Assembly: GCA_964579765.1 (NCBI GenBank) | Contig: CAZOIK010000267.1 | Span: 1 to 61,958, forward strand | From: an uncultured Bifidobacteriaceae bacterium | GTDB lineage: Bacteria; Acidobacteriota; Vicinamibacteria; Vicinamibacterales; CAVVIG01 | Direction: 5' to 3' | DNA: 61,958 nucleotides | Part shown: positions 19,063 through 38,725 of the stretch, in pieces | Layout of the letters: every line of letters starts with the position of its first letter | Position numbering within the stretch: the first letter of the stretch is position 1 | Notes under the pieces: generated by a model | What the model was told of the DNA's origin: nothing | Databases searched by the model: none | What the model saw: the letters and a program-made list of their open reading frames with translations, nothing else | Program-made: the position numbers and the translations under genes

Positions 19063-19079
19063 CTTGGAGCCTTCCCGGG

Positions 19080-21206: not shown

Positions 21207-21226
21207 CCCGGCGGCAGCCGAGGACA

Positions 21227-22327: not shown

Positions 22328-22364
22328 CGATGGCGCTCAAGCTCGTACAACTACGTGGCCTGGC

Positions 22365-24185
22365 TTACAGCAGAACGATGTGATGCTTGATCGCGTACTG
22401 CACAAGCTCGGCGATCGTGTGCAGGTCGAGCGACTTCATCGCCGCGTAGCGATGAAACTCAACGGTCCTAGGGGAGATCCCAAGTGCGGTGCTGATTTGT
22501 TTCGTACTTCGCCCTTCAGCGGCCAGCTGCACGACTTCTCGCTGCCGTCGAGACAGTCTGTCCAAGCCAGTCCGCGCAGCGCCACGACGATGAACGCTGG
22601 TCTCGATTGCCTGCTCGTTCACGGCCGACGACATGAAGCTGCGGCCGGCAAGCACTTCCCGAATGGCCGTCAGGATTTCAGTGCCTGCCGAGCTTTTGAG
22701 GGAGAGGCCATGAATGTCTTTCGCGAGTCCGCCAATCAGCTCGGTCACTTTCAACAGCGGGCCGGCGAGCGCCTGCCCGGACTGCCCCGACGCCTCTGAG
22801 ATCCGCGCGACCTCCATGCCGATCGCCGCGAGGCGCTGACTGAAGACGTCGTGCAGTTCGTGGGCCAGGTGCTTGCTCTGCACTTCCTGGCCTTCGATCA
22901 GCCTCATTGTCAGGTCCTGCAGTACGGCCGAGCTTCGCTTGGACTCGACCATCTCTGCCGCCTGCCTGGCGTACAGGTCGGTCATCCGAAGAACGAGAGC
23001 GTCCGGTCGATAGGGGCGCCGGAAGTACGTCGAGATCACGCCGAGCGGCTGCCGGCTTCCGCTCAACATCGGTGTCGAGTGTACGGCCCGTACCTGCGCG
23101 GCCAGCGCGGCCTGACGGTACGGAGCGAACGCGGGATCAGTTTCGACGTCTTCGACAATGACGTGCGTGTATTCGCGGAGAGCGCGGGCGTACGTGCTCC
23201 CGCCTTCGGCGCCACCATCAAGAAACGAGTCGAGGGACTCCGTCGCGATCCCTCGGTAGGCCAGTACCTCGAACCGCCCGCTTTCAGGGTTGTGGAGCTG
23301 GAGGGTGCCTGCATCGGCGCCCTGCAGAGCCACGATCGCCTCGAGCGCCTCGTCCAGCAGCTGGTCGAGATTCATTTCCGCGTAGAGCCGGGTGCTGAAC
23401 TCGTGAAGGCGCGTCATCGCCGCCAACCCCAGCGACAGGACGTTCTTCAGCGCGATCGTCTCCATTTCGGCGCGCCTCCGCTCGGTGATGTCCTGCACGA
23501 GGCCCACGAAGAAATCGACGCTCCCGTCGGCGCGCCGCTGGCATCGCGCGGCCATGATGCTGTCGATCACCTCTCCGTTCTTGCGGATCCATCGCTTGTC
23601 CATCGAATAGCCGTCGATCTCGCCGGCCATCACGCGAGTAAATTGCGCGAGATCGGCGGCGAGATCGTCGGGGTGGGTCATTTCCGCCCAGGTTTTCTGC
23701 AACAGCTCGCTTCGCTCGTAGCCGAGAATCCGGCACAGCTCGTTGTTGACTTCGAGAATGCCCTTCGATACCGACGTGATCGCCATGCCGACCATGCCGA
23801 TCTCGAAGCAGCGACGGAGGCGATCGTCGCTTTCGCGGAGGGCCAGCTGAGACTGTTTCTGATCGGTAATGTCGATTAGCGTGTTGACGGTGCTCAGAAG
23901 AGCGCCGGACGCGTCCCGCAGCGCTTCGGGATAACAGATGACGCTGCGGCGCGTGCCGTCAGGACGCTCGACGAGCAATTCCTCGCCGCGAACCTCGCGA
24001 TAGAGCTTGAATGACCCGCACCAGCGATCGGTATTCAGCTCGGGCGTGCGTCCCCATAATGCGCGCGCCGCTTCGTTATACAGCGTGATCCGCCCGTCGG
24101 CATCGCAGGTGTAGATCGCGACGGGCAGACTCTGAACAAGTAGAGAGTCTTGCTCGGTGCGCCGCGCGTGCTCTGGGGCGCCCAT
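22365..24185 (-). CDS. PAS-PAS-GAF-HisKA_3 :: LuxR(GerE) HTH chimeric regulator (no HATPase_c, no receiver Asp)
   Basis: Two PAS-like blocks, a GAF-like block, the H-box HLAHELHDVFSQRLAAIG, then directly ...LKSSAGTEILTAIREVLAGRSFMSSAV (tail of a NarL-type receiver). The C-terminus is the GerE HTH LSRRQREVVQLAAEGRSTKQISTALGISPRTVEFHR. Confidence 0.8.
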   Translation of the reverse strand: MGAPEHARRTEQDSLLVQSLPVAIYTCDADGRITLYNEAARALWGRTPELNTDRWCGSFKLYREVRGEELLVERPDGTRRSVICYPEALRDASGALLSTVNTLIDITDQKQSQLALRESDDRLRRCFEIGMVGMAITSVSKGILEVNNELCRILGYERSELLQKTWAEMTHPDDLAADLAQFTRVMAGEIDGYSMDKRWIRKNGEVIDSIMAARCQRRADGSVDFFVGLVQDITERRRAEMETIALKNVLSLGLAAMTRLHEFSTRLYAEMNLDQLLDEALEAIVALQGADAGTLQLHNPESGRFEVLAYRGIATESLDSFLDGGAEGGSTYARALREYTHVIVEDVETDPAFAPYRQAALAAQVRAVHSTPMLSGSRQPLGVISTYFRRPYRPDALVLRMTDLYARQAAEMVESKRSSAVLQDLTMRLIEGQEVQSKHLAHELHDVFSQRLAAIGMEVARISEASGQSGQALAGPLLKVTELIGGLAKDIHGLSLKSSAGTEILTAIREVLAGRSFMSSAVNEQAIETSVHRRGAARTGLDRLSRRQREVVQLAAEGRSTKQISTALGISPRTVEFHRYAAMKSLDLHTIAELVQYAIKHHIVLL

Positions 24186-24218
24186 TCCTTGTTATAGCGC
24201 ACTTACGCACCCGTCGGC

Positions 24219-24770
24219 CTAGCTTGCACGAATCTCTTCAGCGAGTTGGCGCAACCGCAGCGCGAGCGAGAGGACGATTAACGCAAACAACCAGACATAC
24301 GATCCAATGACCCACCCGGGATCAGGCACGCCGACGGGTGACAGCGCCAACACCCCGCACAGGATCGAAAGCAAACCGGCAAGCGGCAGCGGCCACTCAC
24401 CGCTGAGATCCTTGCGAAGCGCAATGGCTACCGCAATCGAGGCGGCGCCGCACAGTAGCGCCCACACGGCAAAGACATTCACCAGCCTGTATGCGGTGGC
24501 CGCGGGTGCGGCAAACACCACCGCCCCGACGACCACGCGGACGATTGCGTCGAAAAGAAAGCTGCCGAAGCCCTCGTGCCCCTTCACGCCGATCGCGATG
24601 ATCAACGCGATGACGCCGTCGGTCAGCGCGTATGCGCCGAACAGCCACGCCAATTGCGTCATGGTCAGATTGGGCCACCACGTCATCACGCCACCGAACG
24701 AGGCGGCGATCACGACGCGCAGCAGCACGAATCCCCAGTTGGCAGCAAGCGCAGCGAGCATTGCCAGCAT
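24219..24770 (-). CDS. HdeD-family / DUF308 membrane protein (copy 2)
   Basis: Last 183 aa of track ORF 24219..25112 (MLAMLAALAANWGFVLLRVVIAASFGG...). A GGAGGA lies just upstream; the alternative start is 24761. Confidence 0.8.
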   Translation of the reverse strand: MLAMLAALAANWGFVLLRVVIAASFGGVMTWWPNLTMTQLAWLFGAYALTDGVIALIIAIGVKGHEGFGSFLFDAIVRVVVGAVVFAAPAATAYRLVNVFAVWALLCGAASIAVAIALRKDLSGEWPLPLAGLLSILCGVLALSPVGVPDPGWVIGSYVWLFALIVLSLALRLRQLAEEIRAS

Positions 24771-24781
24771 TCCTCCGTCGG

Positions 24782-25462
24782 TTAGAACCCGATCGTGATG
24801 CGGTTGTCCACCTCGATTACGCCCGGCGCGGCCCACGCCTGACGAGCGGCTTCCTCCTTCTCCGCCCATGAGCGCACGGTCCCTCTCAGAGTCACCTTGC
24901 CACCGTCGACGTCCACGGTGATCTTCTGCGCGTCGCTCTGGGCCGTTCGCACCAGCGCGTCCTCGATCTTCTTCTTCAGGTCCGCAGGCGCCGGCCGGGC
25001 CTTCACTGTGATGAGGTTCGACACGCCTTTCACGCCGGTGAGACGGCGGACGACGCGCTCGGCGTCGTCGCGCTGGAACTGCCAGTCGACCTCGCCCTTC
25101 AGCGTCACCCACGCGTTCGAGACAGTGACGTCGAGCCGGTCAATCGGAAGGAACGCGTCCCACTCCAACGCGCGCACCGCGGCGGCCGCGATGTCCGCGT
25201 CCGTGCGTTTATCATCCTTCGACAGCCTGACCTCGACGTCGTTGGCCACGGCCGTGACGCCGCGCACGCGATGGGCCGCGTCTTCGGCCGCCCAGCGCTT
25301 GGTGTAGGAGTCCACCCATCCGGTCAACGTGACGACGCCGTCCTTGACGGAGACGCCAATCTCGCTTGCGTTGACCCGCGGCTCCCACTTCAGTTCGGCG
25401 AGCACGTCCTGCTGAATCTGCGTATCCGTTCGTGTCTCAGTTGCAAGTGCCATCGTAGTCAT
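24782..25462 (-). CDS. BON-domain protein (three BON repeats, OsmY-like)
   Basis: [20 protein letters not shown]..., with three repeats of ...[12 protein letters not shown]...K..AE.AA..V.GV..V.N.I.V. The start is 25462 or 25453. Confidence 0.85.
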
Positions 25463-25509
25463 TCCTTTCGGTTGTCGGTTGTGTCCGACGTCGTGAACAC
25501 GCTCGGAAC

Positions 25510-25523
25510 GCAATGCCCGTTCC
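25510..25523 (-). promoter_or_regulatory. sigma54-like promoter for the BON/HdeD operon
   Basis: The reverse complement reads cGGAACG-GGCA-TTGCG with correct spacing. It lies about 48 nt upstream of the ATG at 25462. Confidence 0.45.
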
Positions 25524-25587
25524 GTCATGCCCTCACGAATCTGCGAGGGGCGGGGCTTCATCACGGACCGGCCACGGCGTGCGAATG

Positions 25588-25605
25588 CTCGCGACCAATC
25601 GCGAG
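25588..25605. promoter_or_regulatory. perfect palindrome CTCGCGA-CCAA-TCGCGAG midway between divergent sigma54 promoters (candidate bEBP UAS)
   Basis: Read directly. It is 65 bp from the minus-strand -24 and 68 bp from the plus-strand -24. A related CGCGA-TAAA-TCGCG lies at 18973-18986, upstream of the promoter at 19049. Confidence 0.4.
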
Positions 25606-25672
25606 CGCGCGAATTTTCATGATCAGGGATCCCCAGCCGTGCGCGCGCGGCGCTGAATCGTCGGGACGCGGC

Positions 25673-25687
25673 TGGCACCGCAGTTGC
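25673..25687 (+). promoter_or_regulatory. sigma54 -24/-12 promoter for the second BON gene
   Basis: TGGCAC-CGCAG-TTGCC, a perfect consensus, 59 nt upstream of the ATG at 25746 (SD AAGGAG). Confidence 0.7.
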
Positions 25688-25745
25688 CCTTCCGTCGCGG
25701 CGCCGCGCGATAGGGCGCGGCGGTTCTCTTCCAAGGAGTTGCGAG

Positions 25746-26363
25746 ATGAAAAGCCGACTGGCGATTCTATTCGGCGGGCTAGGCCTGATCCTGTCAGCCG
25801 CGGCTGCGACGACACGCGCGCAGAATTCGGCAGTGGAGGCGATCCGCAAGGAGCTGTTACAGCTTCCGTACTATGGCGTCTTCGATTTTCTGGCGTTCAG
25901 TTACGACAGGGGGACCGTCACGCTCAAGGGCTATGCGTACGCCCCCGGGCTGAAGAAGGACGCCGAACACGCGGTCAAGCGCGCCGCAGGCGTCGATCAG
26001 GTCGTCGACATGATCGAGCAACTCCCTCCGTCCCAGGCCGACGACGAGCTCCGCTGGAAGACCTACTACGCGATTTACCGCGATCCGTTTCTCGCGAGGT
26101 ACGCGCCGGGCGGAGGCATGTTGTGGGGACACCGCCACGCGTTTTCCGGCCCGTTCTCTCCTATGGGAGCGGGGCCATTCCTCGCCTACGAGGCCGCGGG
26201 CGACTACCCGATCCACATCATCGTGAAGAACCTGCGTATCCTGCTGTTGGGCGTCGTGGACAACGGGAGCGACAAAATGCTGGCCGGTGTCCGCGCGCGT
26301 GACGTGCCTGGATCGCTCGGCGTCGACAACCAGCTGGTCGTCGAAGCCTCGCACACCAACTAG
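25746..26363 (+). CDS. exported BON-domain protein
   Basis: Signal [29 protein letters not shown]-like [35 protein letters not shown] and [42 protein letters not shown]. Confidence 0.8.
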
Positions 26364-26415
26364 ACGGCCCGAGCCATCGACACACGGGGTTCGTCCGTGT
26401 GCCGATGACACCTCG

Positions 26416-26799
26416 CTACTTGGTGCTCGGCTCGATGCGCGTCACGCTCTCGCAGTCGGTGAGCACCACGGGAACGCCGGCCGTCGGATGCACTGTCGGC
26501 TTGACCGCGCATGTGACATCCACTTTCTGACCGACCTTGACGTCACCAAGCTTCTCGCCGGTGGCCGCCGGCACCGGCAACGTGATCTCGACGGGCTTGC
26601 CCGGCGCCACGGGCACCGCGGCGACGTCGCGAACGGTAATCGTCTTCGCTTGCGGATCGACCGCGACGACCTCGACGGCGACCGGCGCGATGTCCGAGGC
26701 CGAGCTGCTTCTCTGCTGCTGCTGTCGCTGTTGGGCCGCGACGCCCTGCGCCAGGAATACCGCGACGCCGACGGTGATTGCGAAACCGAATGGCTTCAT
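26416..26799 (-). CDS. small exported protein, unknown function
   Basis: Signal MKPFGFAITVGVAVFLAQGVAA followed by a Gln-rich linker and a beta-rich C-terminus with two Cys. Confidence 0.55.
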   Translation of the reverse strand: MKPFGFAITVGVAVFLAQGVAAQQRQQQQRSSSASDIAPVAVEVVAVDPQAKTITVRDVAAVPVAPGKPVEITLPVPAATGEKLGDVKVGQKVDVTCAVKPTVHPTAGVPVVLTDCESVTRIEPSTK

Positions 26800-26889
26800 G
26801 CTGTCTCCTTGGGGAGCGATGCGGAGGCTCCCGAAAGGCGCGACTGTTCACAAACAACGCCAATCGCCTCGGAGATCGACCCCTTCTCG

Positions 26890-27357
26890 ATGCAGGCGTT
26901 TCGTGCAGAACCGCTCGTGATCGTTCGCGAATCCTCGGATTCTCGTGTTCGTCCGACGGTCCGATTCGTGCACTTTTCCGGCACTGAGATACTCGTGAAT
27001 CTCGAATATTTCAGACGGCGACTCGAGGACATCGAAGCCGAGCTTCTTCGGAAGCGCGAACGCGCTGTCGCGCAGGCCCCTCGCACGAGCGAAGGCGACG
27101 TCGCCGACTCCGGCGATCGCGCGGTCGTCGACGAGCTGAAGGACGAGTACTTCGCGTTCACGGAAGCAGACCTCGAAATCCTCGTGCAGGTCCGCGCCGC
27201 GCTCAGGCGCATCGACGATGGGACGTTCGGGTTATGTGCCGTCGATGGCCGGCCCATCGACGAGAAGCGCCTCGAGGCCCAGCCATGGACGCCCTATTGC
27301 CTGCAGCACCAGCGGGAACTCGAAGAGCGGCAGCGAGTGCGGACGCCGACGCTGTAG
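26890..27357 (+). CDS. DksA/TraR-family protein with degenerate zinc finger
   Basis: C-terminal part of track ORF 26287..27357. Coiled-coil region ...EYFRRRLEDIEAELLRK...EADLEILVQVRAALRRIDDGTFGLCAVDGRPIDEKRLEAQPWTPYCLQHQ. The start is uncertain (ATG 26890 or GTG 26995). Confidence 0.6.
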   Translation: MQAFRAEPLVIVRESSDSRVRPTVRFVHFSGTEILVNLEYFRRRLEDIEAELLRKRERAVAQAPRTSEGDVADSGDRAVVDELKDEYFAFTEADLEILVQVRAALRRIDDGTFGLCAVDGRPIDEKRLEAQPWTPYCLQHQRELEERQRVRTPTL

Positions 27358-27358
27358 T

Positions 27359-27621
27359 TCAGTACTCGGCAAAGACCTCGTCGTTGTAGCAGTACAGCAG
27401 CGCTCACCCGGCTCCGCCGACGCGATCACCGGATGATGGCTCGAGCGGGCGTGCTTGCTCGCGCGTTTATTGGGCGAGGAGTCACAGCACAGCGTCACGC
27501 CGCATGCCTGGCAAGTCCGCAGATGAACCCACGGATCGCCGGTCCTCATACACGCTTCGCAGACGTGGACGCGCGGCGGCTTAACCGTCGAGAGGTTTTC
27601 GATGTCGGCACACGCAGCCAT
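27359..27621 (-). pseudogene. UBP-type zinc-finger protein with a 1-nt frameshift near the 3' end
   Basis: CEACMRTGDPWVHLRTCQACGVTLCCDSSPNKRASKHARSSHHPVIASAEPGER, then the frame is lost. The -1 frame continues LYCYNDEVFAEY*, the expected family ending, stopping at 27359-27361. The present ORF instead reads on to 27232. Confidence 0.65.
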
Positions 27622-27657
27622 GCTGCGGGCCTGTGCATAAAAGCGCACCTGCGCAGC

Positions 27658-27671
27658 GGCTCACTGATTGC
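27658..27671 (+). promoter_or_regulatory. weak sigma54-like element upstream of the TrxR-like relic
   Basis: GGCTCA-CTGA-TTGCG with correct spacing, but only 15 nt from the ATG at 27686. Confidence 0.3.
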
Positions 27672-27685
27672 GCCACGCGAGCGTT

Positions 27686-28480
27686 ATGGCCGACGAGTCT
27701 CCGCCCACGCCGCCGAACGTCGTCAAGGTGCTCGGCAGGACCGCCTCGCCGCCGTGCTACGCGATACGCGACTTCCTCTACCGCAACGACGCGCCCTTCG
27801 AATGGATCGAAGTGAACAACCCCGACGCGCCGATGCCCGTGTGCGTGTTTGCGGACGGAACCCGGCTCGAGCGGGCCGACGTTCAGCGCATCAGCGACAA
27901 GCTGGGATGGTTTCACGACGTATCCCGGTCGGAATACGACGTCGCGATTTACGGCGCGGGACCGGCCGGGCTGAGCGTCGCCGTCTACGCTGCCTCCGAG
28001 GGATTGAAGACCGTCGTCGTCGAACGATGGGCGATCGGTGGACAGGCCGGCAGCAGTCCAAAGATAGAGAACTACCTGGGGTTTCCCCAAGGCATCAGCG
28101 GCGCGGAGCTGGCGGAGCGGGCGCGGGAACAGGCGTGCGCGTTTGGCGCAGAGACTCTGATCGCGCGCGAAGGAGTTCGAGGCGAGTTCACGGCGGGCAA
28201 GCGTGTCGGCTATCTCGCCGACGGCACGAAGGTCGTCGCACGGGCGGCGATTTGCGCGACCGGCATCGACTACCACCGGCTGAGCGTGCCGAACGAGGAG
28301 AACCTCCGGGGCGCGGGCGTCTACTACGGCGCAGGTGCGAGCGAAGCGCAGCTGTGCATCGGCCTCCCGTCGTCATCGCCGGCGGCGGCAATTCCGCGGC
28401 GCAGGCCACGCTGCACTTCTCGAAGTACTCACCACATGTCACGCTCGTGGTTCGCGGCAGCGGACTCAAGGATATGGTCG
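27686..28480 (+). pseudogene. glutaredoxin-like + thioredoxin-reductase-like flavoprotein, frameshifted (~28362) and 3'-truncated (~28480)
   Basis: Frame 1: VKVLGRTASPPCYAIRDFLYRNDAPFEWIEV...YDVAIYGAGPAGLSVAVYAA...GAGASEAQLCIG. Frame 2 continues PPVVIAGGGNSAAQATLHFSKYSPHVTLVVRGSGLKD. After that the similarity ends; the NADPH domain and C-terminus are missing. Confidence 0.7.
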
Positions 28481-28569
28481 ACAATCAGATCGTAGCCATC
28501 CGGATTCAGAAACCGCTGAAGCAGCTGAACCTGATCAACCGAATCGTCGATGACGAGGGCGCGAGGCAT
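28426..28569 (-). pseudogene. relic of a second response-regulator gene (first ~27 codons only)
   Basis: The ATG overlaps the upstream TAA by 1 nt (TAATG). MPRALVIDDSVDQVQLLQRFLNPDGYDLIV is a typical receiver N-terminus. It then runs into antisense TrxR-like sequence and stops. Confidence 0.55.
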
Positions 28570-29048
28570 TACGCGCGTCCTTCTACACATGCGGTGTCGT
28601 GATTGCGGCTGATGCGTCCGGTGGTCGCCAGCGACACCGCTTCAAGCAGTCCGTTGATCGTGCAGGGCTTGTCGAGGAAGGCTTCGTCCTCCCACAGCAT
28701 GGCGCGGTCTGCAAACAAACGATCGCTGAAGCCAGTCAGGTACAGCACCTTCAAGGCTGGATCGTCCCGCCGAAGCAGCCGCGCAAGTTCGTCGCCGTTC
28801 ATGTGCGGCATCTGCAGGTCCGTCAGCAGCAAATCGATTCCGTCGATTTCGTGGACCAGTCGAAGCGCCTCCTCGGCGCCAGCCGCGCTCCATGTGGTGA
28901 CACCTGCCCCATTCAGCACTTGTTGCACAAACTTACGCACAGGCTCCTCGTCGTCGACAACGAGCACTCTGAGCGGGTGCCGCTCGAATGCCTGCGAATG
29001 TCGAGTCGACGCGACGACCATCGACAGGGTCCGCGACAGTGACATCAT
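28569..29048 (-). CDS. single-domain CheY-like response regulator
   Basis: LRVLVVDDEEPVRKFV...IDLLLTDLQMPHMNGDEL...KVLYLTGF...FLDKP. Start at MMSLSR (29048/29045). Confidence 0.85.
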   Translation of the reverse strand: MMSLSRTLSMVVASTRHSQAFERHPLRVLVVDDEEPVRKFVQQVLNGAGVTTWSAAGAEEALRLVHEIDGIDLLLTDLQMPHMNGDELARLLRRDDPALKVLYLTGFSDRLFADRAMLWEDEAFLDKPCTINGLLEAVSLATTGRISRNHDTACVEGRA

Positions 29049-29292
29049 GTGAGTCTCTCGATCAGCGTTCCACAATCGAGGCACTCGCGAACGCTGGCCA
29101 CAAGTGCTTCCTTTCGTACGGGGCTTCCGCCCGACACAGCAGGATGTGTGCCACGTCGGTTGCCGCCGGCAGGAAGACATTTCATGAAAGGAAGCGGACT
29201 CCTCCGGGTTGTTTTCCCCAAGGCGCGGGAATTATTCGCGGCGCATCCAGGCCGCGCCATGCGCTCAAGGCCCAAAATCGGCCTTTCGGCGA

Positions 29293-29307
29293 TGGCACCG
29301 CGGTTGC
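29293..29307 (+). promoter_or_regulatory. sigma54 -24/-12 promoter for the hybrid kinase gene
   Basis: TGGCAC-CGCGG-TTGCC. It is identical at 17 of 18 positions to the promoter at 25673-25690. Confidence 0.7.
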
Positions 29308-29320
29308 CCTGCACGGGCCC

Positions 29321-32155
29321 ATGACCGTGTCGTTCCCACCTGCTCGCAGTCTTATGCGCGAACCCGTGTTCGGCGAATCGGCTGCCGGCGGCGGCCCGAC
29401 TGGCGATCGAGAGGCAAGCGCTCGTCGCCAGCGGGTGCGTGAGATGGCTCCTGACGATCCGCTGGACGTTCTGCTCGTCGATGACGGCTTGACCGCAGTC
29501 CTGCTCACCGAGGCGGCCCTGGCGCAGCAGGGCCGGTTCCGGTTGCGGCGTAGCAAGAGACTTGGCGAGGCGCTGGAGCTGCTCTCGAAGGCGCATTTTG
29601 ACGTGGTGCTTCTCGCCCTGGGTTTGCCGGACAGCCAGGGACTACGCACTCTGCAAACACTGCGGCACAAGAATCCGAAAGTTGCTGTCGTCGTGCTCAC
29701 CGAGAAGGACGACGAGGAGTTGTCGCTGCGGGCGCTTCAGGAAGGAGCGAACGACTATCTGGTGAAAGGGCCGGCAGCCACCGAGCAACTGAACCGGGCG
29801 ATCCGCTACGCCGTCGAGCGCGCCAAGAGCGACGAGGCGCTTCGGCAGAGCGAGGAAGTGTTCCGCGGAGCCTTCGAGAACACCAAGGTATCAATGGCCC
29901 TCGCGGGGCTGGACAATCGGTTCCTCCGCGTGAACGAGGCCTTTTCGCTTATGTTCGGCCATTCCAAGGAGGAAATGCTGCGGTTGTCCGTCGCCGACAT
30001 CACGTACCCCGATGACCTGGCCGAGAGCTACGCCTACAGGGAGCGGCTGCTTACCGGAGAGGGCCAGTTCTTCCAGATGGAAAAGCGGTTTCTCCACAGT
30101 GAAGGCCATGTCGTTTGGGGCTTGACGAACATTTCCCTGGTGCGGGGAACGTCCGACGAGCCGATCTACTACGTCGTGCAAGTGCAGGATGTGACGCAGC
30201 GGAAACTGGCCGAGGAGTCCCTGCGGAAGCGAGAGGAGCAAATCCGACTTCTGCTGGACTCGACGGCCGAGGCGATTTATGGAATCGACATGCACGGCAA
30301 CTGCACGCTTTCCAACCGGGCCTGCGCCCAGTTGCTCGGGTACGAGAGCGCTGACGACCTGCTCGGCAAGCACATGCACAACCTCATGCATCATACGAAG
30401 CCGGACGGCACGCCGAACCCCGAAGAGGGATGCCGCATCTATCAAGCGTTCCGGCGGGGAGAAGGGACGCATGTGGACGACGAACTCTTTTGGCGATCGG
30501 ACGGGACCAGCTTCCCCGCCGAATATTTCTCGTACCCGATCAAGCAGGGGGACAACCTCATCGGTTCGGTGGTGACGTTCCTGGACATCAGTGAGCGAAA
30601 GCACGCGGAAGAGAGTGCGCGCACGTTGGCTGCGGAGCGCAACCATCTCCTGGGACAACTCCGTTTGCAGATTGAACGGATGCCCCTTGTCTATCTCCTC
30701 TTCGACGCCGACTTTCGGATCACTGACTGGAATCCGGCGGCGCAACGGACCTTTGGATACACCAGAGAGGAGGCCCGCGGTAAGCAGCCCAACGAGCTGA
30801 TTCCGCCGTCGTTCCATCAGGATGCGGCGAGGATCCTCGAGCGCATTCGGGCGGGGGACATGGCGGCCCACTCCGTCAATGAGAACCTGACGAAAGACGG
30901 TCGAACGATCACCTGCGAGTGGTTCAACACGCCACTCTTGGCGGATGACGGGCGATTTGGCGGGTTGCTTTGCCTCGGGAGGGATGTCACAGACCAAAAG
31001 ACATTGCAGGCGCAGTTTCAGCAGGCGCAGAAGATGGAGGCGATCGGCCAACTGGCGGGTGGCGTGGCCCATGACTTCAACAACCTGCTCACGATCATTT
31101 CCGGCTACAGTGAGATGCTGCTCGCCACGCTGGGGGCGAGCGACCCGATGCGGGAGTCTGTCAAGGAAATCAGCGAAGCCGGTCATCGAGCCGCCTCGCT
31201 CACCCGCCAATTGCTCGCCTTCAGCCGGAAGACGGTCCTGGAGCCGAAGGTTCTTGACCTGAACGAGACCGTCCGTGAAACCGAGAAGTTTCTGCGGCGG
31301 CTGATCGGCGAGGACGTGTTGCTCACTGGCGTGCTCGATCCGAACATCAGTCGAGTGAAGGTCGACCCTGGCCAGTTGGGACAGGTGTTGATGAATCTGG
31401 CCGTCAACGCCCGTGACGCCATGCCCAGGGGCGGGACGCTTACGGTGGAAACCCGTAACGTCGAACTGGATCACGAATACTCACGCCTTCGCCCCGAACT
31501 CAAGCCGGGCCGCTACGTCCTGCTGTCGATCACCGACACCGGTAGCGGCATGACCGCGGACGTGAAGGCCAAGATTTTTGAGCCGTTCTTCACGACGAAG
31601 GGGGTCGGCAAGGGGACCGGGCTGGGGCTCGCGGTCGTCCTCGGCATCGTCAGGCAAAGCGGAGGGCACGTCGAAGTCGACAGCGAGCCTGAAGTTGGCA
31701 CCACGTTCAAAATCTACTTCCCAGCCGTGGAAGAACAGGTTTCCCCAACCAGAGGACTTGACGGCGGCAGGGATCCGCGGGGCACCGAGACGGTCCTGCT
31801 GGTCGAGGACGAGAACGGCGTGCGTGGACTGGCGGCGCTCGTGCTGCAAAGCTACGGCTACAAGGTGTTGACGGCGGGCAACGGCGTGGAAGCCGTCGAG
31901 GCCGTCGAGAAGCACCGGGGCGGGATCGACCTGGTGGTGACCGACGTCGTGATGCCCGGCATGGGCGGGCCGGACTTAGCGGAAGGCGTGCAGTCCCGTT
32001 TCCCCCAGGTGCGAGTGCTGTTCACAAGCGGGTACACGGACGACGCCGTAGTGCGGCACGGCCTCCTGTCCGAGAAGGTTGCCTTCCTTCAGAAGCCGTA
32101 CTCGCCCCTTGCGCTCGTCAGGAAAGTGCGGCACGTGTTGGACGAGCGTCGATAG
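29321..32155 (+). CDS. hybrid sensor histidine kinase/response regulator (REC-PAS-PAS-PAS-HisKA-HATPase_c-REC)
   Basis: DVLLVDDGLTAV... receiver, three PAS-like blocks, H-box GGVAHDFNNLLTII, N/G boxes NLAVNARDAM and GTGLGLAVV, and the C-terminal receiver TVLLVEDENGVRGL...VVTDVVMPGMGG. The start is uncertain: given the promoter at 29293, ATG 29354 or 29444 may be the real start. Confidence 0.9.
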   Translation: MTVSFPPARSLMREPVFGESAAGGGPTGDREASARRQRVREMAPDDPLDVLLVDDGLTAVLLTEAALAQQGRFRLRRSKRLGEALELLSKAHFDVVLLALGLPDSQGLRTLQTLRHKNPKVAVVVLTEKDDEELSLRALQEGANDYLVKGPAATEQLNRAIRYAVERAKSDEALRQSEEVFRGAFENTKVSMALAGLDNRFLRVNEAFSLMFGHSKEEMLRLSVADITYPDDLAESYAYRERLLTGEGQFFQMEKRFLHSEGHVVWGLTNISLVRGTSDEPIYYVVQVQDVTQRKLAEESLRKREEQIRLLLDSTAEAIYGIDMHGNCTLSNRACAQLLGYESADDLLGKHMHNLMHHTKPDGTPNPEEGCRIYQAFRRGEGTHVDDELFWRSDGTSFPAEYFSYPIKQGDNLIGSVVTFLDISERKHAEESARTLAAERNHLLGQLRLQIERMPLVYLLFDADFRITDWNPAAQRTFGYTREEARGKQPNELIPPSFHQDAARILERIRAGDMAAHSVNENLTKDGRTITCEWFNTPLLADDGRFGGLLCLGRDVTDQKTLQAQFQQAQKMEAIGQLAGGVAHDFNNLLTIISGYSEMLLATLGASDPMRESVKEISEAGHRAASLTRQLLAFSRKTVLEPKVLDLNETVRETEKFLRRLIGEDVLLTGVLDPNISRVKVDPGQLGQVLMNLAVNARDAMPRGGTLTVETRNVELDHEYSRLRPELKPGRYVLLSITDTGSGMTADVKAKIFEPFFTTKGVGKGTGLGLAVVLGIVRQSGGHVEVDSEPEVGTTFKIYFPAVEEQVSPTRGLDGGRDPRGTETVLLVEDENGVRGLAALVLQSYGYKVLTAGNGVEAVEAVEKHRGGIDLVVTDVVMPGMGGPDLAEGVQSRFPQVRVLFTSGYTDDAVVRHGLLSEKVAFLQKPYSPLALVRKVRHVLDERR

Positions 32156-32654
32156 TTGGAGAAGGCGCGCGTTTTGGGGGTGGTTTGCCCGCGAAGAATT
32201 GGGTCGGAGCCGTCAGTGACTGTAGCGTGGTTGGAGAACGACAATTCCTACACCTGACTATCGAACGATCATTTGGGCATCGAGTGAAATGTCGCTGCTC
32301 GAAGCGCAGAATGTGGCGGGGTTACACGCACTTCCGACACTCAGCTCGTGGTTGCCGCGCGATTATCGATCACTCGAGTTGTGACAGCTTCGGCCCTTCG
32401 TCGCGTGTGAGCTCAACGTTAGTATCGGGTCAGATTGGAAATGGACTGTGCAGGTTACTACTCGAAAACGCCGATACGTTTAGGAATCGTACGCACCGCG
32501 ATTCTCGGTGGGACCAGTCCCCCAGTCCGTTTTTGCGCGTTTTTCAGCGCATGTCACCTCGCGCCAGCCCATTCGAAAACCCGTGTGAATGTTGATAGTT
32601 TTCGCGCTCTGGCTGTTTCACGCGCGTTCACGACCATCCACCCTACACCGCGAT

Positions 32655-32676
32655 TGTGTTACCACTGTGTTACCAC
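32655..32676. repeat. perfect tandem duplication of the 11-mer TGTGTTACCAC
   Basis: Read directly: tgtgttaccac tgtgttaccac. Confidence 0.85.
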
Positions 32677-32687
32677 AGAACAGCCGG

Positions 32688-32752
32688 TCAAAGGGTCGGA
32701 TCGGCGCACCTGAGTGTCATTCAGAGGGTCGTGAGGCACAGTCAGAGGGTCG
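32688..32752. repeat. three direct iteron-like repeats TCARAGGGTCG
   Basis: Copies at 32688 (tcaaagggtcgg), 32721 (tcagagggtcgt) and 32742 (tcagagggtcgg), spaced 33 and 21 bp. Confidence 0.75.
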
Positions 32753-32878
32753 GGACATCGCCGCGGTGGGCGCCGGCGAAACGGACCGCGAGATCGGCGG
32801 ACGCCGCGGACCTTCATCAGTTCCTCGATCTTATTTTTGAGGATGATCGGCTCAATGTTTATGCGGGTAAACTCGAAG

Positions 32879-32929
32879 TGCGCCCACCAGCTGCGCCCAC
32901 CACTATGGGCCGATCTAGGAGATCGGGCC
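32879..32929. repeat. direct repeat TGCGCCCACCA x2 followed by the palindrome GGCCGATCT-AGG-AGATCGGGCC
   Basis: Read directly: repeats at 32879-32889 and 32892-32902, palindrome at 32908-32929. Confidence 0.65.
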
Positions 32930-33110
32930 AACGTGGAAGGCCCTTGGCGGCGTCTGGGTCGTGGCCCGCAATACGCTGGGGCGCCGGCACCCTTAGGTCC
33001 TGTTGGCGAGCAGCCCGAGTCGTGCGAGGAAGGCGAGACGATCTCCAGTGGCGAGCGGTAGACTGGCGGGCATCTACCGCCACCGTGAACCCTGAGTCTT
33101 CGAAGGACCT

Positions 33111-35708
33111 ATGGCGACAGCCAGTGCAGGAGAAGTCTATCGGGACATTCTGGAGTGGGGAGCCACGCTTCCTCTGTGGCAGCAAGAGCTTCTGCGTCGC
33201 GTCCTCCCCGAACGTGACCTAACCGTTGCCCAAATCGAAGAACTCGCGGCGGCTGCCGTGTCGGAAAGCGAGCAGCAGCCGTCTGCGTACGCGCCTCTTT
33301 CCCTTGCGGATCTCCCCGCTACGGCTTCAGTTCTTGACGCACGAGTACTCCTCGGCATAAGCAAGGTCCGGAGCGTCAACGCGCTGCGCTCTGATCAGCA
33401 CCTGACATTTGGACCGCAGCTGACGATCGTCTACGGCGACAACGGTTCCGGTAAATCGGGATACGCCCGGGTGCTGAAGAAGGTGTATCGCGCTCGAGTG
33501 GTTGACGACATCCTGGGCAATCTCGGCTCCGAGCAGCCTTCGCTTGACCCGTGCGCGGCGACATTCAGTACTAAAGGTGCTGATGGCGCCGCGGTTCTCG
33601 CCGAATGGCTGGACGGCAAGCCGCTCGAGAACGTCGGGCGCTTTGCTGTACTCGACACGGCCTGTGCGGGCACGTACCTCCGCGGAGGCGCCCTCGCGGT
33701 TGGTCCGTCCGGAATCGACGTCCCTCGGCGGTTCACCGAGGAACTTGACCGCGTCAAGAACCACATCGTGCGCCTGATGGCAGCGTCCGCTCCGAACAAG
33801 ACAGCACTCCAGCGTTTCGAGAATGACACTGAGGCCGGCCGGTTCGTCAAGGGCCTCTCGTCTGCCACAGCCGACGCAACCGTTGCGGCCTTCGAGACCT
33901 GGACCGAGGACGACGCGCAAAAGCTGCGTGAGTCCGAGCGTGCTATCGCCGAGGGGAAGGCGCAGGCGCCATCCGCGCGGCGTGCACAGATGAGGGCTCG
34001 GCTCAGGGCATTGGAGTCAATTCATTCGCGCTTAACCATGTGGCGCGACGCGGTCAACGACACCGCCATCGCCGCGGACCTTACAGCCGTGAAGGCTCTC
34101 GACGAAGCCGATGCAGTTCTGCGGGCGGTCCAGACGGTCGAAGATAAAGCGGTGCGAGGTGAGTTCGTGCAAGGAGCGCCATGGCTTCAGCTCCTCGCTG
34201 CCGCCGCCCAGTTCGTTAGCGCCCTGCCCGCGCACACGCAGGTAATGGCGCCGCTGTCGCTAGATGGCCGCTGCGTTTTGTGCTGGCAACCGCTCGACGA
34301 CGCAGCGCAGAAGCGCATGCAACGCTTTCAAGGGCACCTCGAAGGAACGGCCGTTAAGGCGCAGATGAGCGCGGCGGCGACAGTAACGGCGGCGATCTCA
34401 CGTGTCAACGGCATCCCCGATGCCCTGACGCCGGAGGATGAAGCTGTCCTAAACACAGCCCCTGGTGTCCTGTCGACCGTAAACGAGTCGCTGGCCGCCA
34501 TTCGTGGACGCCGGGACGCGGCTCGGACTCTCCTCAATACGCGAACGCCGCCCGTGAGCCTTCCCGCCCTAGACGACGCCGCGCTCGAATCGCTCCGGCA
34601 CGCGACCGACGCCGTGAAGACCGACCTCGCGGCGTTGCCAGCGACCGACGCTGATGCGCAGGGTCAACTGCAGGCGCTTGAGCGGATAGTGCTCGAACTG
34701 ACGACCCGGCGGTCGGTGGCTGAGTCGATCGCTTCCGTGCGCACCTTCATCGCGATGACACGGGAGCGTCAGCGGCTTGCCCAGGCGGAGCGTGCCATAA
34801 ACACGCGGGCCGCCTCCGTGAAGGCGTCGGACCTGCACAAGAAGCACATGACCACGCGCTACGCGGAACTCGTCAACGACGAACTCCGTGATCTGCGGTT
34901 CAGGCGCCGTCGGCCCATCCTCGCACAGGCAACTAACAAGGGCACCGTGCAGGTGACTCCTCTGGTCAGCGCCGAACTCTCACACATTCCGGCGGAAAAG
35001 GTATTCAGTGAGGGCGAGCGCACAGCGATTGCACTCGCCTGCTTCTTGGCGGAGCTGAGCGTCGGTGATGATCCGTCGGGACTCATTTTCGATGACCCGG
35101 TTTCTTCCCTGGACCATAACGTTCGCGAGCACCTCGCTCGCAGGCTGGTCGCGGCGGCGAAGACTCGCCAAGTGATCGTCTTCACTCACGACCTGGCCTT
35201 CCTGGCGGACCTGCGCGAGCAGGCCAAGAAAATCCAAGTCGTTGAATGCGCATTCCGTACGCTGACTGCGACCGACTACGATGCCGGGTTCGTTGAGGAC
35301 GAAGAGCCGTTCGGCGCTCGCGCCGGCGCAAAGCGTATAAAAGCGCGCCGGCCGCTGCTGGCCGAGATCGAGCGCGCCGCGAAGGCAGGCGAAATGGTCG
35401 CGTTCCGGCTCAACAGTAAGGATTTCTACGAACGGCTGCGCAGCACCTGGGAACGCTTCATCGAGGAGCGTCTCTTCGCTACCGTCGTCCAGCGCCTCGA
35501 GCGGAACGTCACCGCTGGCGCGCTGTCGAAGGTGGCTTATACCCCAGAGCTCGGCGAAAAGGTTCACGAGGGTTGGCGGCGCTGCTCAAACGCCCTCGAA
35601 GCCCACGACCACGCACCGGGGGCGGGCGGGCAAAGCTATTCGGTCGAGGATATGAAGGCGGATTTCCAGTGGCTCCTCGATGTCGAAGCGGCAACCCCCA
35701 AGACCTGA
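33111..35708 (+). CDS. RloC-like AAA_13-family ATPase (Rad50/SMC-like head, long coiled coil with CxxC hook, candidate anticodon-nuclease C-terminal domain)
   Basis: SD AAGGA plus ATG at 33111. Walker A YGDNGSGKSG (aa 108-117). About 500 aa of Ala/Leu/Arg/Glu-rich helical insert with GRCVLCWQPL (C388/C391) near its midpoint. Signature-like FSEGERTAI, Walker B/D-loop GLIFDDPVSSLD, H-loop VIVFTHD. The C-terminal ~160 aa carry RSTWERFIEERL ... WRRCSNALEAHDH. Confidence 0.75.
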   Translation: MATASAGEVYRDILEWGATLPLWQQELLRRVLPERDLTVAQIEELAAAAVSESEQQPSAYAPLSLADLPATASVLDARVLLGISKVRSVNALRSDQHLTFGPQLTIVYGDNGSGKSGYARVLKKVYRARVVDDILGNLGSEQPSLDPCAATFSTKGADGAAVLAEWLDGKPLENVGRFAVLDTACAGTYLRGGALAVGPSGIDVPRRFTEELDRVKNHIVRLMAASAPNKTALQRFENDTEAGRFVKGLSSATADATVAAFETWTEDDAQKLRESERAIAEGKAQAPSARRAQMRARLRALESIHSRLTMWRDAVNDTAIAADLTAVKALDEADAVLRAVQTVEDKAVRGEFVQGAPWLQLLAAAAQFVSALPAHTQVMAPLSLDGRCVLCWQPLDDAAQKRMQRFQGHLEGTAVKAQMSAAATVTAAISRVNGIPDALTPEDEAVLNTAPGVLSTVNESLAAIRGRRDAARTLLNTRTPPVSLPALDDAALESLRHATDAVKTDLAALPATDADAQGQLQALERIVLELTTRRSVAESIASVRTFIAMTRERQRLAQAERAINTRAASVKASDLHKKHMTTRYAELVNDELRDLRFRRRRPILAQATNKGTVQVTPLVSAELSHIPAEKVFSEGERTAIALACFLAELSVGDDPSGLIFDDPVSSLDHNVREHLARRLVAAAKTRQVIVFTHDLAFLADLREQAKKIQVVECAFRTLTATDYDAGFVEDEEPFGARAGAKRIKARRPLLAEIERAAKAGEMVAFRLNSKDFYERLRSTWERFIEERLFATVVQRLERNVTAGALSKVAYTPELGEKVHEGWRRCSNALEAHDHAPGAGGQSYSVEDMKADFQWLLDVEAATPKT

Positions 35709-35747
35709 CGCGGGCAAGCGCTTGCTTCCACAGAAACGGAGTTGCTG

Positions 35748-36200
35748 ATGCCCGTTGAGATTCCGACCTTCGACGCCCCCGAAAAGTACGAGCAGTACGC
35801 GCTGAACGTGGAGGCTCGAGCGCCAGAGAAGGCGCAAGAGGCTCGGCGACTGGCAGTCAAACTCCGTGCGACACGAGACGGTGCGAAGAGCGATGTCGAA
35901 CGCGAATGCCTTGAGGCCATCTACGCATACGAGTGGACGCTGTTCAAGAAGCACGGCAAGCGGCAACGGGCGTCATACACATGGCGAATGGTGGATGAGC
36001 GCGGGATCATTCCCGCTGTTGAGCACGCCGTAACGCGACCGAAGGAGACGGCGGGTTACCGTGGTCTGGAGGCCGAGGGAATGCTCGACATGGCCTTCGA
36101 GGCGGTCGTGCTGAGGCACAAAGACGTGTTCAGCGCCGCGGCCGTGAAGAAGTCGCAGGAGCGGCTCGCCGAGTGGCGCTCCAGCGGCGGCGGGGGTTGA
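35748..36200 (+). CDS. hypothetical 150-aa protein co-oriented with the RloC-like gene
   Basis: GGAG 6 nt upstream of ATG 35748. MPVEIPTFDAPEKYEQYAL...RASYTWRMVDERGIIPAVEHAVTRPKETAGYRGLEAEGMLDMAFEAVVLRH. I recognise no family. Confidence 0.6.
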   Translation: MPVEIPTFDAPEKYEQYALNVEARAPEKAQEARRLAVKLRATRDGAKSDVERECLEAIYAYEWTLFKKHGKRQRASYTWRMVDERGIIPAVEHAVTRPKETAGYRGLEAEGMLDMAFEAVVLRHKDVFSAAAVKKSQERLAEWRSSGGGG

Positions 36201-36212
36201 GATTGTCGCGTG

Positions 36213-36734
36213 TCACGTGAGGGTGAACGCTGAGCGGATCGGGTCCCACTCGGCGGTTACAACTGGTATTGGTCGCTCCCTTCTGCTCGCCATCTCTCTG
36301 ACGCGTTGTGCGTTCTCTTTCGTCATGTCCTCGCCCAGGATCACGCGCGTCAACAAGTCTGGGCCTACGTCAAAGGCAGGACCGCCCTGCCGCCGCGCAA
36401 GGACCAAGCGGAGTTCTTCCTCGTTGCTCCACTCTGGATATTTGTAGAAAAACCACGACGAAGATGTCGCGTTCGAGAGGTCGGTGAGATCATAGGCCGG
36501 TGGTCGTTCGTAAACGACGTCACGAACGTCTACGAACAATCCTGTCCTGGCGAATTCGAGGCAATAGCCCGTCTGCCGTGCGGCGTACCACTCCCACATT
36601 GACAGATTGTCCCAGCGTTTAGACAGGCAGTAGATATGGTGATTCTGTGTCTTCTCGTGCCAGCCTATCGTCGCCATCTCGTAAATCTTCGGCGCGCCGA
36701 TATCAGCAACTATTTCGTCCAAGTCGAACGACAT
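36213..36734 (-). CDS. DUF2971-like protein (short, lacks the usual N-terminal region)
   Basis: Last 173 aa of track ORF 36213..37187. IYCLSKRWDNLSMWEWYAARQTGYCLEF ... FFYKYPEWSNEEELRLV matches my memory of the DUF2971 core. Its ATG overlaps the upstream TGA (TGATG). Confidence 0.65.
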   Translation of the reverse strand: MSFDLDEIVADIGAPKIYEMATIGWHEKTQNHHIYCLSKRWDNLSMWEWYAARQTGYCLEFARTGLFVDVRDVVYERPPAYDLTDLSNATSSSWFFYKYPEWSNEEELRLVLARRQGGPAFDVGPDLLTRVILGEDMTKENAQRVREMASRRERPIPVVTAEWDPIRSAFTLT

Positions 36735-38725
36735 CACAACGCTCCGGCCGCGACCTGGTCGAAGTACGACACCTGCGGCCCGAGGTAGTACGGTTTGAGA
36801 TAGCACCGCGTCGGCGGCAGCGGATTGAAGCCATCGTACGGCAGGACAATCGCCTGCGCGTTCTGCAGTTCGGTGAACGCCTTCGGCTGGAACACGTAGT
36901 CGAGCGACAGGCTGTACGTCTTGGCAGCACTGACGGTGGTCCGGTGCGCCGCCGGGCGGCCGGTCAGCATGCTCACGCGCGCATCCTGCCCCGCCTCGGT
37001 CAGGGCATAGCTCGGTTTGAGACGCTCCGCCTTCCCGCACAGCTCCGCGGCGATGTGCGCGCTGAAGTCGTCGGAGAGGGCCAGGAAGATCTTCGTCCGG
37101 AGTCCTTGGAGGAGCGTCCGCCACGCCTCGCCTGGCAGCGTTGACCGCAACGAGCTGAGGCTCTGGGTCGCGACGATCGGAATGCATCGCGCCTGCCGCG
37201 CCAGCGAGAAGAACTTCTCATCCCCAGAGGGCTCGTTCTCGCCCGTCGTCGCGAACGCCTGATACTCGTCGCAGACAAAGAAGACCGGGCGCCGGCTGGC
37301 CTCGCTCTGATCGAGCTTTTGGATCCGATTGAGCACCGCGCGCTGAAAGTCCTGCTTCAGCATCGTACCCAGCGCGCGGGCCAGGCCGGGATTCATGGCG
37401 ATCGGAAAATTGAGCGCGATGACCTTGCCCTGTTCGATCAGGTCGGCGATCGGCGGCAGCGACACGCCGTGCCGGCCGTCGTGATTCGCCGTGGCGTCGT
37501 ACGTGTCTTTCGGGGGGCAGAACGTGTGCTTCACGCGTGGGTTGTCGTCGAACAGCGAGAGAAACACGCTGATGCCCTCGACGATGGACGTGCGGAGCTT
37601 CGGCTCCATGCGCATCCAGTCGTCCTCGAACCAGCGCTTCACGGCCTCGAACTGGGCGGTCTTCTCGCGGTCGCGGGCATCAAGGTGCCCGCCCTCCACA
37701 TGGTACGGAATGGTGGCCTCTCTGAGGGACTCCTCGACGTCCCGATCCCAGTGCGTCCACGTGTGCAGCGTATCGTTCGTGACGTGCCAGTCCCAGGCCT
37801 TCAGTACATCGCTGAGCAGGTGCTCCCGTTTGTCCACGACAATGCGCCGGTTGTGCGCGGTGAAGCGCCGCTCCCCGTCCGCGATCTTCGCGCGCAGCTT
37901 GTCCGGGTTGATGACGTGCTCGTACACTTGGAACAAGGTGACGTAGTCGTCGAGCACCTGGTGCAGCAGGATCACGAACGTGACAAGATTCGTGCTCGCC
38001 TGCTGCCAGAACGGTTCCTTGCCGCGGCCAAAGAGATTCGTCATCAACATGGCAATGCCGTACGCCAGGGCGTAGGCATCGAGGTCATTGTGCAGCGGGT
38101 TGTACCGGTACGGGGAGGTAAGGCTAACCTCGATGTAGTCGTCGCCGCGGCCGTACCGCTCGAGCAGCTGCCGGACGTGCGCGCAGAAGTCGCCTTTCAC
38201 TTCGAGCACCAGGCCACCGATCTTCCGCGCAGGCTCGCTCGCGCGATAGCCCACCAGCTGCTCGACATAGGGATACATGCACGCCGAGGTCTTGCCCGTG
38301 CCGATGGCGCCCACGATGATCGTGCCCGTGTAGAGCCCGCGCTCAGGGATCGCCAGCCACCGCGGCTCCGCCGCGGGCAGCGGCGAGATCTGACGGTGCT
38401 GTTCGCCGAGGATCACAAAGAGCGCGTCTCGATCCTGGGGCCGCGGATACGGCGGGAGCGCCGCCTTGGGCACGCGACGATCCGTGCGGGCCACGAAGAT
38501 GTACACGAACGCGCTCACCATCGTGAGTAGCAAGAACGGCGTGCTGAACCACAGGGTCGCGTAGGCGTACACGAACCCGGCGTACACCGTCGGCTGGCTC
38601 GCGTGGATCAACCCGAGGAGCGGCTGCTCGGTGGGGAACGGCCACGCCTGCAGCCCGGCGACGCCAATGACCTCGGCCAGCGCGAGGCTGATGACGAACC
38701 GGTACTCGATCAGGACGCGTGCCAT
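36734..38725 (-). CDS. membrane-anchored type IV coupling protein-like ATPase (TraG/TraD/VirD4 family, FtsK/HerA superfamily)
   Basis: 663 aa. N-terminal TM helices (VISLALAEVIGVAGL, YAGFVYAYATLWFSTPFLLLTMVSAFVYIFV), Walker A IIVGAIGTGKTSACMYPY, Walker B-like RRPVFFVCDEYQAF, and IPIVATQSLSSL. Confidence 0.8.
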   Translation of the reverse strand: MARVLIEYRFVISLALAEVIGVAGLQAWPFPTEQPLLGLIHASQPTVYAGFVYAYATLWFSTPFLLLTMVSAFVYIFVARTDRRVPKAALPPYPRPQDRDALFVILGEQHRQISPLPAAEPRWLAIPERGLYTGTIIVGAIGTGKTSACMYPYVEQLVGYRASEPARKIGGLVLEVKGDFCAHVRQLLERYGRGDDYIEVSLTSPYRYNPLHNDLDAYALAYGIAMLMTNLFGRGKEPFWQQASTNLVTFVILLHQVLDDYVTLFQVYEHVINPDKLRAKIADGERRFTAHNRRIVVDKREHLLSDVLKAWDWHVTNDTLHTWTHWDRDVEESLREATIPYHVEGGHLDARDREKTAQFEAVKRWFEDDWMRMEPKLRTSIVEGISVFLSLFDDNPRVKHTFCPPKDTYDATANHDGRHGVSLPPIADLIEQGKVIALNFPIAMNPGLARALGTMLKQDFQRAVLNRIQKLDQSEASRRPVFFVCDEYQAFATTGENEPSGDEKFFSLARQARCIPIVATQSLSSLRSTLPGEAWRTLLQGLRTKIFLALSDDFSAHIAAELCGKAERLKPSYALTEAGQDARVSMLTGRPAAHRTTVSAAKTYSLSLDYVFQPKAFTELQNAQAIVLPYDGFNPLPPTRCYLKPYYLGPQVSYFDQVAAGAL

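Follow-up and report, generated by a model that had tools for sequence, protein, structure and literature searches.

A 61,958-nt stretch of contig CAZOIK010000267.1 (assembly GCA_964579765.1), hereafter called the window, carries on its plus strand a gene for an 865-amino-acid (aa) ABC-type ATPase (33111..35708). A first reading of the DNA letters, referred to below as the original prediction, had taken the product for an RloC-like anticodon nuclease with a new regulator or immunity partner encoded just downstream. RloC is a wobble-nucleotide-excising tRNase that is switched by a DNA-dependent ATPase and a zinc hook (PMC2610378, PMC3458546). We found that the 865-aa protein is a member of a widespread, already catalogued RloC-like candidate phage-defence family, PDC-S06 of PADLOC, and that its gene falls into a long-form clade of this family, which is set apart by an additional N-terminal domain and by a diverged effector domain. 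Taken together, the evidence leans modestly towards a stand-alone, horizontally mobile defence protein that is built like RloC and that would share its RNase mechanism.

The list of open reading frames (ORFs) and the translation identified 33111..35708 as a real gene, and its product could be aligned over the full length with homologues as distant as 23% identity. All of the motifs singled out by the original prediction (Walker A, FSEGER, LIFDDP, FTHD, GRCVLCWQPL, RSTWE and NALEAHDH) were located at the residues assigned to them. The ABC head is marked by the Walker A motif or P-loop YGDNGSGKSG (aa 108-117; 33432..33461), the ABC signature FSEGER (aa 632-637; 35004..35021), the Walker B motif with the start of the D-loop, LIFDDP (aa 658-663; 35082..35099), and the H-loop FTHD (aa 691-694; 35181..35192), all on the plus strand. 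Residue conservation was assessed in a set of 68 homologues reaching down to 23% identity. The core of the ABC motifs (G109, N111, G114, K115, S116, G117, G635, E636, D661, D662, P663 and H693) was present in every one of them, T692 of the H-loop was likewise invariant, and S633 and E634 of the signature were kept in 67/68. Outside the ABC motifs, W16, W23 and W358 as well as C388, L390 and C391 were found in 68/68, and Q393 in 66/68.

We indeed observed the split architecture in an AlphaFold2 (AF2) model of the full-length protein, which had a mean predicted local distance difference test score (pLDDT) of 84.3. The model comprised, in order, an N-terminal three-helix domain (aa 6-53), the N-lobe of the ABC head, twelve helices at aa 204-594, the C-lobe (aa 603-729) and a C-terminal helical domain (aa 739-861). 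The helices between the two lobes belong to a 411-aa insert that splits the head (aa 192-602; 33684..34916, plus strand). Because the midpoint of this insert is residue 397, the CVLC motif with C388 and C391 (aa 388-391; 34272..34283, plus strand) lies at its centre, where the model forms a short segment resembling a beta-hairpin. A Foldseek search of the PDB with the full model returned the heads of SMC, Rad50, JetC and LmuB proteins (E=5e-10 to 1e-6), the best of them being SMC/Rad50 heads with their coiled coil, and no RloC or PrrC structure among the entries searched. The claim of a split, Rad50-like head with a CxxC midway was thus borne out, as was the predicted conservation of both cysteines among homologues, and the CxxC can be regarded as a candidate zinc hook. 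The N-terminal domain (aa 1-75; 33111..33335, plus strand), which holds the invariant W16 and W23, was modelled as helices at aa 6-17, 22-31 and 39-53 with pLDDT of 84-94; it gave no Pfam match and is specific to the long-form clade.

Profile searches placed the protein in a known group. PADLOC assigned it to the candidate single-gene system PDC-S06 through model PDLC04891 (E=6.9e-150, aa 11-855 against profile positions 5-846 of 858), and the further PDC-S06 models 04893, 04888 and 04892 matched as well. In Pfam, the anticipated AAA_13 match was obtained (E=1.1e-16) together with SMC_N and AAA_21, while NCBIfam yielded nothing specific and a sequence search of the PDB gave only matches to the ABC motifs, with no RloC or PrrC structure among the entries searched. 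The family is widely distributed. More than 130 full-length homologues were recovered by a word-indexed search, at least 562 loci were confirmed by tblastn in GTDB species genomes of many phyla, and a family match was present in 327 plasmid records, of which 142 are conjugative. The contig index gave no entry for the exact window protein.

RloC proteins were defined by ABC ATPase motifs, a CXXC within a helical insert, an Arg-X3-Glu-X36-52-His triad and a size of 658-897 aa (PMC2610378). The window protein has the ABC motifs (Walker A, signature, Walker B with D-loop and switch His) and, judged by sequence and predicted model, the helical insert with a central CxxC; it also carries a triad of the same spacing, R777-x3-E781-x50-H832, and its size lies within the published range. 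For comparison, we recovered a published RloC orthologue of 746 aa from Shewanella sp. ANA-3 plasmid 1 (NC_008573; L096:30255-32495, minus strand). This protein matched PDC-S06 through PDLC04890 (E=2.9e-266), so that PDC-S06 serves as the PADLOC label for the RloC/AAA_13 superfamily. Pfam AAA_13 also covered it over the whole length of the model (1-713 of 713, E=3.9e-178), and the PADLOC PrrC model matched it over aa 412-694, through the catalytic His (E=1.6e-13). The window protein matches PDC-S06 over its full length, as a single gene and with no structural difference from the system as defined; the candidate label unites classical RloC (among others, models 04890 and 04886) with the long-form clade, and the window protein falls into another, deep sub-clade of the superfamily.

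Profile-profile alignment with hhalign, in which the 68-sequence window family was set against 119 RloC-clade sequences that are 46-100% identical to one query, a composition that limits sensitivity, related the two groups over their full length with a probability of 95.4% (E=1.7e-8) at ~14% identity. The insert alone gave a probability of 69% (E=4e-5), with RCvLCqQ-L of the window family placed on CPFCQQ-I of RloC. The full-length alignment started at residue 103 of the window protein and residue 25 of RloC, and the N-terminal three-helix domain is absent from classical RloC. The likeness to RloC of Geobacillus kaustophilus and Acinetobacter baylyi (COG4694/AAA_13) therefore comprises a single polypeptide, a Rad50-like head that a helical insert interrupts, a CxxC at the centre with Q after it (RCvLCxQxL...R..RF in the window family, CPFCQQxI in RloC), a C-terminal helical domain with R-x3-E-x(36-52)-H and common membership in PDC-S06. 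In contrast, the window clade is ~100 aa longer and has an additional N-terminal domain, its match to AAA_13 is confined to the ABC motifs, the Arg of the triad is found in only 57% of its members, and its C-terminal domain has no detectable homology to that of RloC.

The C-terminal four-helix domain (aa 733-865; 35307..35705, plus strand) is a candidate HEPN-like RNase effector. Modelled alone by AF2, it formed a four-helix bundle with a pLDDT of 85.5 and a predicted template modelling score of 0.79. Helix 1 spans aa 739-758, helix 2 aa 762-788 with W780 and E781, and helix 3 aa 812-830 with R824 and S826; an insert of aa 789-811 separates helices 2 and 3, H832 follows directly after helix 3, and helix 4 covers aa 845-861. 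In HEPN RNases, helix 2 bears an acidic residue, an insert separates it from helix 3, and the catalytic His is located where helix 3 ends (PMC3710099); the predicted domain fits this layout with E781 and H832 in the corresponding positions. The codons of the residues concerned lie on the plus strand at 35439-35441 (R777), 35451-35453 (E781), 35580-35582 (R824) and 35604-35606 (H832). Both E781 and H832 were conserved in 68/68 homologues, with an E-to-H spacing of 48-53 within the family; W780 was kept in 66/68, R782 and S826 each in 61/68, and R824 in 50/68. An Arg or Lys occupied position E-4 or E-6 in 60/68 members, and an Arg was located eight residues before the His in 43/68. A reading of H832-D833 as an HD phosphohydrolase was rejected, since only a single His is invariant and no HD-domain fold was matched. 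When the domain was used in phmmer against 1.84 billion representative proteins, at least 432 clusters (50% identity) were obtained, and among the best 150 of these 432 the full-length matches were mostly 844-900 aa long. Short matches were considered as PrrC-like short forms, and the seven that were inspected proved to be fragments of long-form proteins lacking Walker A. On these grounds, the domain looks specific to the long-form clade.

By analogy with the RloC proteins of Geobacillus and Acinetobacter (PMC2610378, PMC3458546, PMC3874168), two protomers would dimerise around a zinc ion that their four hook cysteines coordinate, and the ATPase head would sense DNA ends or breaks arising from phage attack or genotoxic stress. 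ATP hydrolysis might then free the C-terminal domain from self-inhibition. The liberated domain would act as a metal-independent HEPN-type RNase that cuts tRNA anticodon loops, and the resulting halt in translation would abort the infection. For the RNase or tRNase step in particular, we consider the chances to be about even: what argues for it is the invariant Glu and His in a predicted HEPN-like geometry rather than a demonstrable homology.

We further examined the genomic context of the family in 80 genome loci, whose 2638 flanking ORFs were clustered all against all. No conserved neighbour gene emerged, as no flanking ORF was common to more than 8 of the 80 loci, in line with the proposal of a stand-alone gene. 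The commonest neighbours were HsdR (8 loci), tyrosine integrases (6 and 4), a serine recombinase (5), RadC (5), HsdM (4) and HsdS (4), showing that the surroundings of the family vary and are often mobile or rich in defence genes. These contexts mirror those of RloC (PMC2610378), for which integrases, recombinases and RadC are recorded in Table S1 of that study, and the single-gene definition of PDC-S06. The original prediction was right that no restriction-modification (R-M) genes lie near the ATPase gene: none was present within ~6-10 kb, according to the scanned ORFs and the annotation of an identical sister contig. It had also treated this absence as unusual for RloC, which did not hold. 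R-M linkage was reported for merely 8 of 73 RloC orthologues (PMC2610378), so the missing R-M genes are ordinary, and HsdR stood beside 8 of the 80 family loci. Close homologues differ in their surroundings: one of 88% identity is flanked by a DndB-like gene and an ABC permease, and one of 71% identity by an AlpA-like gene and an MmeI-type R-M enzyme. The latter (P0003) is also found beside a 649-aa TraG-D_C protein, a T2SSE ATPase and AlpA. The Shewanella RloC gene, for its part, adjoins an IS200/IS605 tnpA and lies ~0.75 kb from a divergent operon for the methyltransferase, S and R subunits of a type I R-M system, and a Qat system is located ~10 kb away; with these neighbours the plasmid region represents a dense defence island.

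The small ORF following the ATPase gene after about 40 nt is present as described, with its ATG at 35748, 39 nt past the ATPase stop codon, and a GGAG 8 nt upstream of this ATG. It encodes a 150-aa protein (35748..36200, plus strand) to which no family could be assigned, since Pfam, PADLOC, NCBIfam and the PDB gave no match. The protein nevertheless belongs to a conserved family of at least 261 homologues of about 146-156 aa, whose invariant residues include P11, N20, R40, Y61, E62, W79 and R139. The source name of an identical copy of the protein, together with a sister contig, assigns the window to a metagenome-assembled genome of the Vicinamibacterales (Acidobacteriota).

A number of observations weigh against an RNase activity of the C-terminal domain. 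The original prediction had likened its Arg/Glu/His residues to the catalytic set of PrrC and RloC. The spacing of the RloC motif and the invariance of E781 and H832 upheld this likeness; R777, however, was found in only 39/68 members (57%), being Ser in the remaining 29, and H834 was conserved in just 25/68. The canonical HEPN motif Rx4-6H is absent from the window protein, which reads R824-x7-H832, and is present in 16/68 family members. The sequence match to the PrrC/RloC nuclease that had been expected of the tail did not materialise: hhalign of the C-terminal domains gave a probability of 0.15% (E=0.39), the full-length alignment put the catalytic residues out of register, and neither profile-profile comparison in local and global modes nor the window-family profile set against a single RloC sequence gave a match for this domain. 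In keeping with this, the best AAA_13 stretch covers only the ABC part (aa 628-707 against profile positions 496-583 of 713) and the PADLOC PrrC model only aa 659-709 (E=2.9e-4), whereas both models extend over the C-terminal region of the Shewanella RloC, and a PADLOC search with the isolated domain offered no route to RloC or PrrC. The top Foldseek matches of the domain, HepT 7bxo_D and 6m6u, were HEPN proteins with TM scores of 0.51-0.54 and a probability of 0.92, yet their best E value of 0.33 is non-significant. Other HEPN matches (1wol, 8y7g, 2hsb, 1o3u and 7ae6) were non-significant too and were interleaved with generic four-helix bundles, and viral structures gave no match. In the literature searched, PDC-S06 figures solely as a PADLOC prediction without experimental validation, and no assayed long-form member was found there. 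These points would suit a Rad50/SMC-like DNA-sensing defence ATPase whose C-terminal domain is not an RNase and has instead a regulatory, protein-interaction or other chemical role, the resemblance to the RloC triad being convergent or coincidental. Such a protein would also account for the poor conservation of the Arg in both candidate motifs and for the restriction of the domain to the long-form family, which leaves it with no tie to a characterised nuclease. We consider this explanation a substantial possibility but the less probable one: Glu and His are invariant at HEPN active-site positions down to 23% identity, which argues for catalysis, and the single-gene organisation requires the effector to lie in the same polypeptide. 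Moreover, the lack of a canonical Rx4-6H is shared by RloC itself, the sequence in the Shewanella protein being WINDGSH, preceded by R651-x3-E655. By architecture and motifs the window protein thus belongs to the RloC-like group, while sequence comparison cannot demonstrate that its effector domain is homologous; with no detectable sequence homology and non-significant HEPN matches, the tRNase reading rests on architecture and motifs.

Were the protein concerned with housekeeping DNA repair, as SbcC, Rad50 and RecN are, and not with defence, this would suit its head fold and CxxC hook, which resemble those of Rad50/SbcC, and window neighbours such as DnaK, Hsp20 and regulators. Such a role is nonetheless improbable: an Mre11/SbcD-type nuclease partner was present in none of the 80 loci, the distribution is patchy over many phyla and extends to the 327 plasmid records, the context changes even between homologues that are 88% identical, R-M genes, integrases and recombinases are the commonest neighbours, and third codon positions of the ATPase gene are less GC-rich (GC3 of 0.725) than those of the core genes in the window (0.85-0.89), which is compatible with horizontal acquisition. 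Less probable still, to the point that we give it very little weight, is a two-gene system in which the 150-aa protein acts as an antitoxin, immunity factor or regulator. The two genes do lie on the same strand with only 39 nt between them, the second has its own GGAG, and the pair occurs in three other contigs of the same lineage. However, both proteins are 100% identical in these three contigs, the only ones to keep the pair, so they provide no independent evidence for pairing. By tblastn, the 150-aa gene was absent from all of the 80 loci, where no neighbour of any kind was common to more than eight, and it was likewise missing beside the 88%- and 71%-identical homologues. Its own homologues adjoin an ADP-ribosylglycohydrolase in one lineage (124 blocks of the contig collection) or a carboxylesterase in another, with no AAA_13 gene near them. 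The proposed regulator or immunity partner is therefore withdrawn: the 150-aa gene is a chance neighbour and not a component of the system.

On the preferred reading, a stand-alone defence protein built like RloC, the window protein resembles PrrC of E. coli EcoprrI, in which an ABC-type NTPase is joined to a helical RNase domain that lies C-terminally and bears an Arg/Glu/His triad, and it would share the abortive-infection logic of PrrC. However, PrrC measures ~400 aa, and its ATPase is unsplit and lacks a CxxC insert, compared with 865 aa and a 411-aa insert here; it always resides inside a type I R-M locus that silences it, whereas no hsd genes surround the window gene. Rad50, SbcC and SMC proteins, LmuB of Lamassu and JetC of Wadjet have the head fold and the long helical insert in common with the window protein, and the CxxC hook is as in Rad50/SbcC. 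The window protein differs from this group in its much shorter insert, in a fused effector-like C-terminal domain and in having no Mre11/SbcD, kleisin or separate effector partner. HEPN toxins (HepT of MntA-HepT, Csx1 and RnlA) resemble the C-terminal domain in forming a four-helix bundle whose second and third helices are separated by an insert, with the acidic residue on helix 2 and the His where helix 3 ends; they differ in having Rx4-6H instead of R-x7-H, in the absence of sequence similarity and in structural matches of E=0.33 or worse.

Several entries of 844-897 aa in the RloC list of 2008 were flagged as having a 'poor ACNase triad' (PMC2610378), and these probably belong to the long-form clade. 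A further and rather tentative possibility, to which we give low probability, is that the long-form clade, whose members measure about 850-900 aa and make up no fewer than 432 clusters at 50% identity, is a sister lineage of RloC and not its orthologue, combining the same Rad50-like CxxC sensor with an independently acquired effector and a clade-specific N-terminal sensor domain.

Within the window, the ATPase gene and the 150-aa gene are bordered by a hybrid histidine kinase gene on one side and a convergent minus-strand pair on the other. The first gene of this pair (36213-36734, minus strand), whose 173-aa product matched PADLOC PDC-S31 (E=8e-19) and weakly DUF2971, is convergent with the 150-aa ORF at a distance of 12 nt. 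The second (36734-38725, minus strand) encodes a 663-aa TraG-D_C/TrwB-like coupling-protein ATPase, to which the 649-aa TraG-D_C protein beside the 71%-identical homologue is similar, and the pair may constitute a second defence or mobile module. GC3 values of 0.77 for the histidine kinase gene, 0.755 for the 150-aa gene and 0.68 for the PDC-S31-like gene were obtained in the region 28988-36734, and values of 0.85-0.89 for the genes of DnaK, a PQQ dehydrogenase, a carboxylesterase and the TraG-like protein. This drop across 28988-36734 suggests that the patch is more recently acquired DNA. The ~950-nt gap upstream of the ATPase gene contains small ORFs without a family match. Two 21-nt direct repeats, TGAGTGTCATTCAGAGGGTCG and TGAGGCACAGTCAGAGGGTCG, which are 81% identical, stand in tandem there at 32711-32752. 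Scans for promoters, terminators and repeats around the ATPase gene gave nothing above background, and no tRNA genes were found in the window. Farther upstream, 13223-28602 holds stress and regulatory functions, including the carboxylesterase, DnaK (15641-17530, minus strand), Hsp20, a response-regulator protein, a PAS-GAF-LuxR regulator, a triple-BON protein, a DksA/TraR zinc-finger protein and a sigma-54 activator (21227-22327, minus strand) with a strong PADLOC match to the AAA+HTH part of RtcR/PspF-type models.

These results bear on how the gene and its relatives should be named. In JGI annotation, members of the long-form clade appear as EcfA2, RecF or an oligopeptide-transporter ATPase, whereas the RloC clade is annotated as 'wobble nucleotide-excising tRNase'. 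A fitting label for the window gene is a long-form RloC-like (PDC-S06) candidate defence gene, in place of EcfA2, RecF or a generic 'AAA family ATPase', and the downstream gene no longer stands as a lead for a new immunity partner. The label concerns a large clade, which is found on numerous conjugative plasmids from Klebsiella, Pseudomonas and further genera. As far as the sequences indicate, this clade has kept the sensor architecture of RloC, while its effector domain appears to have drifted past sequence recognition. If the long-form clade is indeed a sister lineage with its own effector and N-terminal sensor domain, then its RNA target or its trigger would differ from the wobble-nucleotide excision that RloC carries out after DNA breaks.

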